Origin: Tricharina praecox
Taxonomy: Eukaryota
Direction of reading: 5' to 3'
Length of the DNA: 64,000 bases
NCBI RefSeq assembly: GCF_024521635.1
Contig: NW_026250427.1
Coordinates: 1 to 64,000 of the forward strand
Both the position numbers and the translations under genes were made by a program. The notes under the pieces are model-generated. The model was not told where the DNA came from. It ran no database searches and worked only from the letters and a program-made list of their open reading frames with translations. Each line of letters starts with the position of its first letter. The stretch's first letter is position 1. Below are positions 12,259 through 18,491 of the stretch, piece by piece.

Positions 12259-12883
12259 ATGTCCCCGCCCGCCATACCGTCCCGCGAGGAAATCCACCAA
12301 TGGCTTCTTGACGTCCACCTTCCCCACCCACGGCCTCTATTCCACCAGCTAACCAGCTAACGTGGAGCAGTTCCACTCGACCAGCGCCGCCCTCGACGCA
12401 GAGAATTACGTCGACAAGTTCTTCACGCCCACGGCGACGATCCACTTCGGCAACCTGCCACCCGTGAGTGGGCGCGAGAACATCCTCGCCGTGGGTTTCC
12501 CCCGTCCCCTCCCCCCATCATCCCTCCCCTATCCGTCCCCAGGTCATTCCTGAGTCCCTCCTTCCAAACGTTATTAACACGAGCAGATGTTCACGCAAAC
12601 CTTTGCCGCACTCGACTCGATGGAGCACGAGGTAGTGCACTTCGATATCGTCCCTGGCACTGGCAGGGTATACCAGGCGGCCGATATCACGTACGTCGTC
12701 AAGGGGGATCCGAAGAGGGAGGTGTTTACGGTCCGTGGGTTGGCCGTGTGTGATTGGCCCGAGGAGGCGGAGGGGGAGGGCGGGGTGATGAGGGCACAGC
12801 GAATGCAGATCTTTTTGGATCCGTCGGCGGTGTTTGCGAGAATGGGTGAGGTGGCTGCGGCGAGGGCGGGAGCGGGGGTGTAG
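12259..12883 (+). CDS. SnoaL-like / NTF2-fold small protein
   Basis: Exons 12259-12312, 12371-12490, 12587-12883 join in frame; FTPTATIHFGNLPPVSGRENILAMFTQTFAALDSMEHEV is typical of SnoaL-like domains. Confidence 0.75.
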
Positions 12884-13105
12884 GGAGTGGATGGGTGGGA
12901 TTGGGGACCACAGAGTAATAGCACGCGTATGTCACAGTGGGGAAGGAAGGTTGGAAGGTATGGCTGGCTGTTACGACATGTATGTACCTACAATATCACC
13001 ATTACAAGAAGAAGTCGTTAAGAAAAAAAAGAGATTTATTTGGTATCTCGTACTTTTAAAAACAAAAAAGGAACTCACCCGCAACGCAATCCCACCCCCT
13101 AGGGC

Positions 13106-14312
13106 CTAGACCCTCCACTTCTGGTCAGGAAACTTCCAGCCAGCCTTGTAGTTGGCCATTCTCAGCTCCTCCATCGACATGCCCATCCACTCGGGCGACA
13201 TGCAGATGTTCTGGTAGACGACGGGGGGAATGACGGGATCAGGCGAGGCGTAGTACACGCCCTCGAGGCGGGGGTGGAAGGCGGGAGTCACTGGAGCGCC
13301 CCTTCTAGACGTGTACCTGTTGGCGTCATTGATGTCACTGGCGTCGTCGTCGTCCTGCGTGGTGTTCGCATCGAAGAATGTCGGCGGAATACCCATCTGC
13401 CATTGATAGTGCGTGTCCTGGCTGAAGGTGGGACCCGCTCCGGGAGGTGATGGATCACGGGTAGTGAAGTTACTGAATATGGTGGGAGCATCGATAGTGT
13501 CGGGCCAGTTGGGAGCGACGGTCGTCGAACTCGAAGCCGAAGGGCCGCTTCCGGTCCCCCAAGGACGTTTCGGAAACAGAAACGGGTTGTCCTTGATATT
13601 GTTGCAGGTGGCTGCAACAGTCGGGTCGGAGCTGGATGGAGCGACCCTCTGGTCGGGAAATCTCCAGCCGGCCTCGTAGTCCGCCAGCCGAAGTTCCTCC
13701 ATCGGCACATCAGTGCATGCAGATGGAGCGGTTTGGCTAGCTGTGTTTCCGGCCGTGTTGGTCGTGTTTCTGGCAGTGAGAGGCATACTGGAGCCATCCT
13801 CCAAGTTTAGCGCTTCCAGCGCTTGAGTGATAGTCTGTATCTTGCAGACAGGAACTTCGAAAGGCGGCATGGTGATCGCCATGAAAACGTTAGTGGGGAG
13901 TAGTACTCCCCAGAGCGCAGCTAAGGCTGCGCCGTACGCTTTCAGCTCGATCGGCTCGGCGGGAGTAGCGGAATCTGCACGCATCGTCAGCGTCAAGCAA
14001 GTGTATATATAGGAAATCAATACTCTACGTACCCTTGAAACCCTCAGCGGAAGTAGCCGCCTTTCCCTCCTCTACCGGCATGCTCTTCGCCGACTTGAAG
14101 ATTTCATCCCAATCCGCATACACTTCCTGAATCGGCTCATGGTACCGGTTGAGGATCATATCGATATACGCATCGTCGCGTTCGTCCGTCGGCGGCGGAC
14201 GGCTTCCCGGCTTCGGGGCTCTGTTGTTGGGAAATAGGGTGGACATGAAGGTGGCGGCGGTGGTGGGGGTAGGGATGATACGTAAATCGTTATCGGTGTT
14301 GGGATCAGCCAT
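13106..14312 (-). CDS. Hypothetical protein with C-terminal GLEBS-like motif (copy 1)
   Basis: Exons 14312-14033 and 13974-13106 (GTACGT..CTGAC..CAG intron). Ends YQNICMSPEWMGMSMEELRMANYKAGWKF; extra internal MEELRLADYEAGWRF. Confidence 0.7.
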
Positions 14313-15712
14313 TTTTAATGGTGTGAATTTGACGTGGTGGAGTGGGGAGTGAGTTATCGTGACTTGAGGAGTGTTGGTGGTTGAGGAAGAGGAAGATGAG
14401 TGGTGGTGGTGGAAGAGGAAGAGGAAGACGAGCGGTGGTGGTGGAAGAAAAATGGGAGTGGTGGTGGAGGAGGAGGAGGAAGAGGAGAGAAGGGAAAGCC
14501 AAGAGAGAACCCCGAAAAGGGAAAACGAAACTTACTTACCTATCTACGGAATTCCAAGTCAACACATCACCATCACTCGGCGAATAGGCACAGGCTAGCC
14601 AATACTAGCCAACAGCCTTGGTGCCCAGTCGACTGGAGTTCAGGGCAGTCACGGAGACGGAGACGGGGGAGGGATGGCGGTGTACCTATGTAGGAGAACT
14701 ACATATCTTGTTGACATGCTCGGGAGGAGGAAGGAGGTGTTAGAGAAGGTTTGAAGTTTCTAAGGAGATAGGGTGAGGGTGAGGGTGAGTGATCGTCCGT
14801 GCTTGGGTATGGCGAGGGGAACTTGTGTAAGTAAGTACAGGCGTACAGGCGGGGCTGATGTGCTCTGCCTGGTTACTGATAACGGCGCTTGGGAGTCTTC
14901 TAAGCTAGAACTCTGAACGACTCCTCTAGGTACCTTCTCAATATCTTGGACGACGATGAATGTAGCGGCCGGCATGGGTAGGACTAAACCCGAAGTTCAT
15001 GCAGCTCAGCAGCGCTCCTGCGGGCCACATTCATCACTCGTGGCGAATATCGCCAAAAAAGCCGTACCATCCCTCATCCCCAAGCGCGGATCTGTGGATC
15101 CGTGTCCCCGTGTCCCCGTGGCTTTGTCTTTGTCTTTGTCTTATGTCGCCGCAGCTTCTGTGTTTGCAACTGCTATTTGACATTGCTATTTGACATTGCT
15201 ATTTGATAATTCCATGACGCCAGCTGGAGTCTAGACTGTACGTGATGTGCGCGCGGGTCGACGACGAATGACAAGTCATCTATCTATCCTCCCTTCCGCA
15301 GTTCACTCGTCCCGTTCAGATGGATTTAGAGCTGGATTTAACTAGAGCTGACTCCCAAGTATAGTATACCTAGTATAAGGTTGGGTCTTGTACGTATTCT
15401 CTTGACAAGTTGACAAGGTGATATGTTGACAAAGCCTTTGGTGGTTGTACGGAGACGGAGATGTAGAACGCGAAAAGGCTGTGGACTACGGGCGGGGGGT
15501 GGGATTGGGGATTACAATGTACTATATAGTAGCACGCCCGTATGTCACAGTGGGGAAGGAAGGTTGGAGGGTTGGAAGTTATGGCAGGTTGTTACGACTA
15601 CAATATCACTACCTAGGTATTACAAATAATGAGGTCGTTAAGAGAAGTAAAAATCTATCCGGTATCTCGTACTTTTAAAAACGAACAAACTCGCAACCAA
15701 GTCCCCCCCCCC

Positions 15713-16760
15713 CTACCTCCACTTCTGGTCGGGAAACTTCCAGCCCGCCTCGTAGTCGGCTATTCTCAGCTCCTCCATCGACAAATCAGCCCACTCGAGC
15801 GAAATGCAGATGTTCTGGTAGACGACGGGGGGGATGGCGGGATCAGGCGAGGCGTAGTACACGCCCTCGAGGTGGGGGTGGAAGGCGGGAGACACTGGAG
15901 TGCCCTTTCCGGACGTGTGAGGTGATGGAATATTGATAGTGGAGTCACCAGATATGATGGGAGCATCGATAGTGCTGGGACAGTGGGGAGCGATGTTCGT
16001 CGAGCTCGAAGCCAAAGCCGAAGCGCCGCTTCCGTTCCCCCAAGAACGTCTCGGGAACAGAAATGGGTTGTCGTTGATATTGTTTGAGGTGGCAGGAAAA
16101 GTTGGCTCGGAGCTAGATGGAGCGGCCTGGCTGTTCTTGTTGGCCGTGTTTCCGCCGGTAGTGAGTGGCATACTGGAGCCATCACCCAGGCTAAGCTCTT
16201 CCAGGGCTTGCGTGATAGTCTGAATCTTGCAGATAGCAATCTGGAAGGGAGGCTTGGTGACCGCCATGACAAAGTTAGTAGGGAGTACTCCCCAGAGCTT
16301 AGCTAAGGCTAAAGCATACGATTTCAGCTCGGCGGGAGTAGCGGGATCTGCACGCATCACATCACAGAGGGCGTCAGTGTCAATCAAGTGTATATATACG
16401 AATTTATTACTGTATATACGGACCGTTCATAACTCTATCGTAGATAGATTCCATTTCTTCCTTCGTGGCGTCATCCACCTCCGCATAAATTTTCGAATAC
16501 CACACCTTGTCCTGCATGTAGAGCATCGCGAGAAGCACATTGTTATCAGTTAAGTCCGGCTGTGGCGGGCGGCTTTCTGGCTTTAGCGCGGCGGTTTCGG
16601 CAGCCTCGTCAGATGGGTTCGGGCGCAACTTGGGGAATATGGAGGACCTGGAGGAGGGGAAGGTCGGGCCGAAATTGGGGAATATGGAAACCCGGGTGGA
16701 GGGGGTGGTCGAGGTGGTCGAGGTGGTAGGCGAATCGTTATTGGTGGCGGGATGGGCCAT
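15713..16760 (-). CDS. Hypothetical protein with C-terminal GLEBS-like motif (copy 2, paralog of 13106-14312)
   Basis: Exons 16760-16424 and 16347-15713, same intron position and phase as copy 1. Ends YQNICISLEWADLSMEELRIADYEAGWKF. Confidence 0.7.
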
Positions 16761-17350
16761 TTTAATGGTGTATATGTAATGTGGTGGAGTGGAGAGTGAG
16801 TTATTTTGATTTAAGAAGTGGTGGTGGTGGTGGTGGTGGTGGTGGAGGACGAGAAGTGGCGATGGTGGTTGAGGAAGAAGAATTGTGGTGGAGGAAGAAG
16901 AGTTGTGGAGGAGGATGAAGTGAGTGGTGGTGGTGGAAGAAGAATGGCGGTGATGGTGGAGGAAGAGGAATGGCAGTGGTGGAGGAGGAAGAGGAGTGGG
17001 AGGAGAAGTGAAAGAGGGAAACTCGAAAAGGGAAAACGAAACTTACCTATCTACGGAATTCCAAGTCAACACATCACCATCACTCGGCGAATAGGCACAG
17101 GCTAGCCATACTAGCCAACAACCTTGGTGCCCAATCGACGACCCCAACACCCACACACACAGCATCGATCAGGCACTACATAGCTCAACACGACTCATTG
17201 CGTTGGAAATATGCGGTAGCAAAGTACATCAGAAATGCATCCAGACGATGATGGCCTAGGTATGCAAGAGATATAGACCTACGTAGCTTTTTACGAAAAG
17301 AGAGTACTAGACACATATCGCCGTGCAGGCAGCCAGCCACAGCGTTTTCG

Positions 17351-17664
17351 AAGAGAGAGATTTTCAGTTTATTTCGCATGCAGCCTATCTAGACTATGGC
17401 GAACCGTCGCACTTCTTTCGTGCCCACTCTGGCCGGCCGCTATCAGCCAGCACGATGTGGCGCCGCTGCCTGCCAAACAAAAAACATAGGAAACCGCACC
17501 AGGACATATAGGTCCCGATGCGATGCTTTCCTCCTCCTCCTCCTCCTCCTCCTCCTTCCCCTTCTTCAGGTCTGGTGGAGCTTTCCTCCCCGTCGTTCCT
17601 AAAAACTCTAGGATTACCTCTCTGCACTGTTCATCAGCGAACAACCCCACTATCGACAACCTCT
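17351..17664 (-). mobile_element. 5'-truncated non-LTR retrotransposon (LINE, Tad1-like) 3' end with 16-bp target-site duplication
   Basis: Perfect direct repeat AGCCACAGCGTTTTCG at 17335-17350 and 17665-17680. Minus strand reads SIVGLFADEQCREVILEFLGTTGR (resembles a fungal LINE ORF2 C-terminus) and ends in AATAAA followed by a short (TC)n tail. Confidence 0.75.
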
Positions 17665-18491
17665 AGCCACAGCGTTTTCGCAGCAGTAAAACATGGCAGT
17701 GAAACAAGCAAACGAGTGACCCCCAATGAAGAACACACGTGATAATCAACATTGAACAGGATGGATATTATGAAGGGTTGAAAGAGTTGCGGTGACGCGG
17801 TGATGTTTCTTCTACATAAAGGATTCGGTGGGGTTCTAATAGGCCAGCCACTGCATGGTTTGACCAAGAAATTTTAGAAAGTGGCAGTCGACTGGCGTTT
17901 AGGGCGGTCACGGAGACGGAGACGGGGAGGGATGGCGGTGTTCCTATGTAGGAGAGGAGTCATACAGAATCTACAGGGTGCTGGTGGGTATGATACTGTC
18001 ACCACCACGAAACAATGACCAGGAAATGGCCAGGAGGAACCGCAATGTGTGCGTATCATACGGCGAATTCGGAATAAGAGCCGTGTGACCACCTGTGACA
18101 GATATGCCAGATCATCCAACACCGAGTGCTAGGATATGATTACAATTGATCCCCCATCGCTCCGCCCCCCCCATTGCCCCAGTGCTCCGAATGCACCTCA
18201 CGCTCGATGATCCCCACATACACACACGGCCTCCAATTACGTTACAATCCAGCTCCCAATTCGAGCTGAATGAAGCAAGCAAGCAAGAACAAACAAGACA
18301 AAGCAAATAGACGGTCGGATAAAAACGTGACCGATAATGCTCCTAAACTCCCAGACTCCTAAAAAAAACAAAAAAAAACAACTCTATACTCCAAAACACC
18401 CAACTCCATTCCTTTTCCTTCCCAAAACCCCCAGCAACCACATCCCCATCCACGCCACGCTTCAGTACCACGTCCACAGCGATAACAGGCA

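Follow-up and report, generated by a model that had tools for sequence, protein, structure and literature searches.

Two small genes in the genome of Tricharina praecox, a member of the Pyronemataceae (Pezizomycetes), raise the question of whether a protein that is not a nucleoporin can carry the docking site for the mRNA export factor Rae1/Gle2, and what it might do with it. The genes, here called A and B, lie in the first 64,000 nucleotides of contig NW_026250427.1 (assembly GCF_024521635.1); "the window" refers to this whole stretch. Docking of Rae1/Gle2 to the Gle2-binding sequence (GLEBS) of Nup98, Nup116, and Nup145N is a conserved step of mRNA and pre-60S export, and the Rae1-Nup98 complex is attacked by several viruses. 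An initial annotation of the window had described a tandem pair of paralogs at 13106..16760 with GLEBS-like C termini and had suggested that they recruit or sequester Rae1. Gene models and translations showed the pair and the quoted C termini to be exact: the interval, bounded by the gene A stop codon and the gene B ATG, contains two intact two-exon genes, in tandem and both on the minus strand. The Nup98 string quoted for comparison, HQCITAMKEYESKSLEELRLEDY, is likewise the sequence found in PDB chain 3mmy_B. We conclude that, by sequence comparison, the likeness of the C terminus to a GLEBS of the Nup98/Nup145N type is statistically real; that the family acts as a Rae1/Gle2 ligand or competitor seems to us about an even prospect.

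Both proteins finish with the shared ending YQNIC..EW...SMEELRxA(D/N)YxAGWKFPDQKWR. A profile of four copies of this motif, taken from the window and its paralogs, was searched against 5.8 billion proteins (longer proteins, with 8000 candidates scored) and gave 11 matches at E values up to 10. T. praecox paralogs accounted for three of these; the rest were P0008, a 129-residue protein that itself matches the Pfam family PF21240 at 39 bits (E = 1.8e-8), the dynamin-like protein P0009 from Wilcoxina mikolae (E = 4.2e-7), a tardigrade Nup98-Nup96-like protein that scores 145 bits to PF21240 (E = 1.2e-5), one JGI protein (E = 3.4), and four full-length Nup145 proteins, from Erysiphe, Golovinomyces, and two Logan records (E of about 7 to 8). 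When a profile of three C-terminal copies was searched against the PDB, all seven matches at E up to 10 were Nup98 GLEBS chains, the best at E = 0.067, and the matched stretch was Nup98 187-216. A genuine GLEBS, that of Erysiphe Nup145N, found the Nup98 chains of the PDB at E = 0.055, so that the family scores on a par with an authentic fungal GLEBS.

The reverse comparison agrees. A profile built from GLEBS outside the family was scanned against the 1810 six-frame open reading frames (ORFs) of the window and picked out genes A (50.3 bits, in two domains) and B (38.9 bits), with the next best ORF at 4.6 bits; the profile is not fully independent, its members having been found through the family. 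Profile-profile alignment of the C-terminal arm with hhalign scored 57.1. Counted by hand from the EELR anchor, the arms of gene B and Erysiphe Nup145N agree at 14 of 31 positions, and their spacing is the same. Five motif copies can be compared, and in all five the Glu-Glu pair is present and every GLEBS-consensus position is intact, including the more diverged paralog P0007 and an internal copy in gene A. These reciprocal profile matches bear out the type of GLEBS that the initial annotation had assigned, and on the profile evidence we regard the likeness itself as settled.

Several observations nevertheless weigh against reading the family as Gle2 ligands, and the first of them concern the motif. 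PF21240 is the best Pfam match for all five family proteins scanned, at 13.1 to 15 bits (E = 0.027 to 0.1), and none reaches its gathering threshold of 27 bits. Of the GLEBS hairpin, which spans about 57 residues, the C-terminal arm alone is recognizable, and the full two-arm hairpin is not found: the hhalign score of the N-terminal arm, 5.5, was equaled or beaten in 86 of 100 column shuffles. At the position where nucleoporins have Arg or Asn, the family has Trp (GWKF versus GRRF or NRKG). The Pfam result loses much of its force on inspection of authentic proteins. The Nup145 proteins of Erysiphe pulchra (P0013) and Golovinomyces cichoracearum (P0015) score only 12.2 and 11.9 bits to PF21240, over residues ∼184 to 206; since genuine fungal Nup145 also falls below the threshold, missing it is weak evidence against membership. 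A genuine Nup145N GLEBS at about 12 bits against a cutoff of 27 also means that PF21240 leaves fungal GLEBS unannotated, which is useful to know for annotation. Profile searches, then, fell short of the threshold with the Pfam model and gave significant matches with the family profile, which reached the Nup98-like and PF21240-bearing proteins listed above.

Could the resemblance be that of a short acidic or helical stretch, unrelated to GLEBS and alike by chance? The sub-threshold Pfam scores would fit this idea, as would the single-sequence phmmer searches against the PDB: the C-terminal 48 residues of gene B matched four sequences only (E up to 10), each a human Nup98 GLEBS chain with E of about 0.9, the corresponding 48 residues of gene A gave no match, and the whole of gene B exon 2 gave two chance matches only. 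Chance is, however, hard to reconcile with profile E values of 1.2e-5 to 1.8e-8 to PF21240-bearing proteins in a database of 5.8 billion, or with an ungapped alignment that keeps the same spacing over about 30 residues. Nor was the profile-profile score of the C-terminal arm reached in any of 100 column shuffles. In addition, a filter-free phmmer search of 1.84 billion representative proteins with P0006, an NCBI hypothetical protein of T. praecox with which the gene B model agrees letter for letter, gave five matches; three were T. praecox proteins, and the other two covered only the motif (P0017, E = 4.7e-7; P0018, E = 3.6e-4). We consider a chance likeness extremely improbable.

A GLEBS need not bind Rae1. 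Bub1, BubR1/Mad3, and BuGZ are non-nucleoporins whose GLEBS are of the Bub3-binding type, according to PMC9147866. The family motif might in the same way bind Bub3, the Rae1 paralog of the spindle checkpoint, and stabilize, recruit, or titrate it as BuGZ or the Bub1/Mad3 GLEBS do. The Bub1, BubR1, and BuGZ motifs engage Bub3 through the same conserved Glu-Glu pair that the family has, BuGZ is a precedent for a GLEBS carrier that is neither a nucleoporin nor a kinase, and cross-binding is documented, in that RAE1 also binds the BUB1 GLEBS (PMC9147866). The similarity searches point to the other partner, however. Among the seven PDB matches of the family profile there is no Bub1 or Mad3 chain; those database matches that have a name or known Pfam domains are Nup98 or Nup145, except for one dynamin-like protein; and nearly half of the aligned arm is identical to Erysiphe Nup145N. 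On this evidence Bub3 is an improbable partner.

What surrounds the arm is not nucleoporin-like. FG dipeptides number none in A and one in B, and GLFG is absent from both; at E up to 10, Pfam found no FG repeats (PF13634), S59 autopeptidase (PF04096), or Nup96 part in the family, and no kinase, TPR, or C2H2 zinc finger family. The claim that the proteins lack FG/GLFG repeats, an autoprotease, a kinase, and TPRs is therefore upheld. The predicted anatomy consists of a disordered N terminus, a small helical domain, a disordered Ser/Thr/Pro-rich linker, and the GLEBS arm at the extreme C terminus. In the AlphaFold2 model of P0006, two short helices (residues 286-294 and 303-312) lie within the motif, and the sole region of moderate model confidence is in the helical domain, with a predicted local confidence (pLDDT) of 65 to 77 over residues 90-130. 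Leads from the ESM Atlas to Nup42/Amo1-like clusters (0.81 and 0.77) were dismissed: shuffled proteins often score so, and the structure matches had TM scores below 0.5.

Gene A carries a second, internal arm, which the initial annotation had not reported, just as it had not reported that only the C-terminal arm is recognizable or that the family has two further members. The internal arm comprises about 22 residues, without the YQNIC..EW half; it was aligned to the family motif by hhalign (probability, 98.5) and also matched by a regular expression, and its DNA is 82% identical to 15724-15789, in the C-terminal arm of gene B. The two additional T. praecox paralogs, P0005 (288 aa) and P0007 (156 aa), are encoded on another contig, of 56 kb. 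Outside the motif, relatives were found only in T. praecox, whether by word-index search, filter-free search, or a scan of metagenome contigs; in that scan, gene B exon 2 gave 109 pattern matches and no relative among them. The family is in this sense lineage specific, as had been proposed.

Whether the motif is under constraint was assessed by comparing genes A and B, using the Nei-Gojobori ratio of nonsynonymous to synonymous substitution rates (dN/dS), with P values from Fisher tests, and nucleotide identity over aligned bases. The exon 2 products share 51% identity in a gapped BLASTP alignment, in which identity over the last 62 residues, counted by hand, is about 81%; exon 1 has diverged far more (dN = 0.57). 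The earlier statement that the C terminus is the best-conserved part and that exon 1 has diverged therefore holds at the protein level. It does not hold as a sign of constraint. Nucleotide identity is 90.4% in the last 60 codons and 88.0% in the motif arm, and 88.6% in the 3′ flank, 88.9% in the 5′ flank, and 86.2% in the intron; in the helical domain it is 82.1%. Because identity at the C terminus (88 to 90%) equals that of the noncoding flanks and intron (86 to 89%), the A/B pair gives no sign of selection on the motif. The dN/dS comparison that had been suggested for the motif did not support it either, the ratio over the 37-codon arm being 0.51, which is indistinguishable from 1 (P = 0.25); over the last 60 codons it is 0.68 (P = 0.36). 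The first 60 codons of exon 2, which encode the helical part, gave 0.40 (P = 0.017), and we conclude from this ratio that the predicted helical domain is under purifying selection. Divergence at synonymous sites (dS) is uneven, at 0.135 in the last 60 codons versus 0.457 in the helical domain; this mosaic suggests gene conversion between the tandem copies, or else faster change in the 5′ coding half.

These data bring in a further account, in which the motif is real but idle. The genes would be young, fast-evolving orphans, or else would be turning into pseudogenes, and a nucleoporin-GLEBS-like fragment (for example, from a partial Nup145N duplicate) would have been kept only by recency and gene conversion, without a part in Gle2 biology. 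Besides the flank-level identity and the low C-terminal dS, which would suggest a recent conversion tract, ratios near 1 in exon 1 (1.16, P = 0.76) and in the linker (0.91, P = 0.72) are on its side, as is the finding that homologs of the rest of the protein came only from T. praecox among the searches run. The family may also be decaying, because P0005 has no helical domain and the model of P0007 is remnant-like; both look truncated or rearranged. No protein record was found in the database for gene A, and its exon 2 had no 100% match. Counted against the Gle2 reading itself are the poor structure models: the AlphaFold2 model of P0006, made from a 5-row alignment, has a mean pLDDT of 44.5, and the Atlas model scores 0.41.

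Other observations are less easily explained by an idle motif. The case for constraint on the motif is that both the more diverged P0007 and the gene A internal copy have kept the arm, and that the invariant columns of the arm match the GLEBS consensus. The case for constraint on the genes is made by the intact frames and splice signals of both window genes, the dN/dS of the helical domain, and a coding-like GC content at third codon positions (0.66 to 0.71, resembling the neighboring genes; in gene A, 0.69 versus 0.53 at codon positions 1 and 2). Finally, an unrelated dynamin-like protein in another species of the Pyronemataceae ends in this arm, Trp variant included, an argument that there is a reason for keeping the cassette. 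We regard an idle motif as possible, though on the unlikely side.

That dynamin-like protein, P0009 of W. mikolae (913 aa; Dynamin_N and Dynamin_M domains), ends in RYQNIGFMPELKDMSMEELRLADYDRGWKFGEDTKKC (residues ∼867-913); it scores 19.8 bits to PF21240. A word-index search for a Nup145 of the Pyronemataceae, made with the Wilcoxina C-terminal region, gave two candidates, neither of which was scored. Similar arms occur elsewhere. P0008 and P0018 (106 aa) are tiny proteins with two GLEBS arms each, and both pass the PF21240 cutoff (39 and 47 bits); P0017 (781 aa) has three tandem full-length GLEBS repeats. A cluster of five members around P0011 (323 aa), uncharacterized, has a Nup145N-like GLEBS at the C terminus. 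The Trp variant, in the form GW[RK][FY], is common to P0009, P0008, and P0018. P0008, P0009, P0017, and P0018 resemble the T. praecox family in bearing a nucleoporin-type arm outside a nucleoporin, at the C terminus in the case of P0009, but the rest of each protein is unrelated, and they are mostly metagenome records and uncharacterized.

The features of the locus are collected in the table.

Features of the tandem gene pair in the T. praecox window (all coordinates are window positions)
Feature	Coordinates	Strand	Details
Gene A	13106..14312	minus	382 aa; ATG at 14312; open frame, GT..AG intron, CTGAC branch-site-like sequence
Gene A exons	exon 1, 14312-14033; exon 2, 13974-13109; stop codon, 13108-13106	minus	
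Gene A intron	13975..14032	minus	58 nt, GTACGT...TGCAG
Gene A C-terminal GLEBS-like arm	13109..13216	minus	FHPRLE...YQNICMSPEWMGMSMEELRMANYKAGWKFPDQKWRV; PF21240 is top Pfam match, 15 bits
Gene A second, internal GLEBS-like arm	13643..13717	minus	CTDVPMEELRLADYEAGWRFPDQRV / PMEELRLADYEAGWRFPDQRV; in an insertion missing from gene B
Gene B	15713..16760	minus	323 aa; ATG at 16760
Gene B exons	exon 1, 16760-16424; exon 2, 16347-15716; stop codon, 15715-15713	minus	
Gene B intron	16348..16423	minus	76 nt, GTCCGT...TGCAG; read-through leads to a stop after 5 codons
Gene B predicted helical region	16193..16547, interrupted by the intron	minus	P0006 residues 72-164; AlphaFold2 helices 72-94, 97-112, 117-131, 136-143, 155-164
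Gene B C-terminal GLEBS-like arm	15716..15820	minus	FHPHLE...YQNICISLEWADLSMEELRIADYEAGWKFPDQKWR; aligns ungapped to Nup98 HQCITAMKEYESKSLEELRLEDYQAN
Duplication unit 1 (gene A and both flanks)	12893..14697		blastn of unit versus window
Duplication unit 2 (gene B and both flanks)	15497..17139		blastn versus window

Genes A and B have the intron position and its phase, phase 1, in common, and a CTGAC branch-like sequence is present in both introns. A further database entry, P0016 (117 aa), continues gene B exon 1 into intron sequence (…VMNGPYIQ) and represents an alternative call of the same locus, without splicing. The duplication took in the flanks of both genes, and a further 71 nucleotides, at 17885-17955, match 14626-14697 with 93% identity. 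Two pieces of unit 2 that adjoin in unit 1 are parted by the ∼745 bases at 17140-17884; either unit 2 has gained an insertion here or unit 1 has undergone a deletion. Directly upstream of both starts, at 14340-14520 and 16800-17000, are long simple-sequence tracts, GGT/GAA rich on the plus strand (CCA/TTC rich on the gene strand), within which repeats occur at 14450-14503 and 16809-16859. A Pfam scan of 27 long ORFs of the window identified housekeeping neighbors (an annexin, a ubiquitin-conjugating enzyme, a rhomboid, a DHHC palmitoyltransferase, a permease, a CDP-alcohol phosphatidyltransferase, and Hobbit), and no WD40 gene was among these 27.

Read coverage was examined in four sequencing runs. 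Run X1, which is RNA by guess only, gave a 232-nucleotide contig at 13749-13980 (depth, 3.5), which takes in the beginning of exon 2 of gene A together with 6 nucleotides of the predicted intron and has no splice joint; runs X2 to X4 gave no contig over the locus. Just downstream of the neighboring plus-strand ORF, which ends at 12883, a contig of run X1 lies at 12900-13035 with a depth of 642; its end, at 13035, is loose and adapter-like. If the run is RNA, the end of this contig may mark the 3′ end of the neighbor's transcript.

Given the resemblance of the arm to the Nup98/Nup145N GLEBS, we infer how the T. praecox proteins might act; Gle2 binding, the choice of partner, and an effect on export are all projected from sequence. 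The arm would lie on the top face of the Rae1/Gle2 β-propeller, like the nucleoporin's own GLEBS, and both conserved salt bridges would come from its invariant Glu-Glu pair. From there, one option is that the protein competes with Nup145N for Gle2, which would make it the natural equivalent of the dominant-negative GLEBS fragment; the other is that it carries Gle2 to a binding partner of the helical domain. Either would be expected to modulate Gle2-dependent mRNA or pre-60S export. If a Gle2 ligand is what the family encodes, the family, a nucleoporin-type arm on an unrelated scaffold, would be the first candidate for a Gle2 competitor or adaptor of endogenous origin, and it would supply a 35-residue tag with which Gle2 should be pulled down. 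A broader scenario can also be drawn, which as a whole we think quite unlikely: a portable nucleoporin GLEBS arm, repeatedly attached to unrelated proteins in the Pyronemataceae and in metagenome eukaryotes, would have seeded in T. praecox a fast-evolving, tandemly amplifying family of decoys vying with Nup145N for Gle2. They could hold back mRNA and pre-60S export or steer it elsewhere, and might act in a developmental or stress state (for example, after fire) or in genetic conflict; viral proteins that target Rae1-Nup98 would have in them an endogenous counterpart.

How does the family compare with the GLEBS carriers already described? To our knowledge, the natural carriers are nucleoporins and the Bub3 ligands Bub1, BubR1, and BuGZ, and a GLEBS that blocks export without FG repeats has existed only as a laboratory construct. 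A stand-alone GLEBS in a non-nucleoporin is accordingly not new as a kind; of natural FG-less proteins with a GLEBS of the nucleoporin type, we found no description in the open-access full-text literature. BuGZ/ZNF207, Bub1, and BubR1/Mad3 are like the T. praecox proteins in being non-nucleoporins with a short GLEBS that bears the Glu-Glu pair, and theirs holds a Rae1-like WD40 propeller (PMC9147866). They differ in their partner, Bub3, and in their zinc fingers, TPRs, or kinase domains, which are absent from the family.

With the GLEBS of Nup98, Nup116, and Nup145N (PF21240), the family shares consensus and spacing, [FYH]QNI(x5)[YW](x3)S[ML]EELR[LIM]A[DN]Yxx[GN]x[RK][FY]. The canonical motif is described as a hairpin of about 57 residues, in which the Glu-Glu pair of Nup98, E201/E202, forms both conserved salt bridges to Rae1 (PMC3783196), and binding of Gle2 to the Nup145N GLEBS is reported for a filamentous fungus (bioRxiv 10.1101/2021.10.26.465790). 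In the family the pair is invariant, as in Nup98. Unlike the nucleoporins, the family is without FG/GLFG repeats, the S59 autopeptidase, the Nup96 part, and a recognizable N-terminal arm; it has Trp after the Gly instead of Arg or Asn; and its arm sits at the extreme C terminus of a small orphan protein, with gene A having two.

The closest parallel in behavior is an artificial one. In human cells, overexpressed NUP98(181-224) removed RAE1 from the nuclear envelope and led poly(A)+ RNA to accumulate within the nucleus, and a point mutant was without effect, as described by Pritchard et al. 1999 (PMC2133102). The stretch of Nup98 to which the family arm maps, 187-216, lies inside this cell-active fragment. 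The NUP98 fragments are constructs made for expression in human cells, whereas the T. praecox genes are natural and are known here from their sequence. Like the family, NUP98(150-224) and NUP98(181-224) are GLEBS without FG repeats, and by titrating RAE1 and blocking the export of poly(A)+ RNA (PMC2133102) they display the behavior that we propose as possible for the T. praecox proteins.

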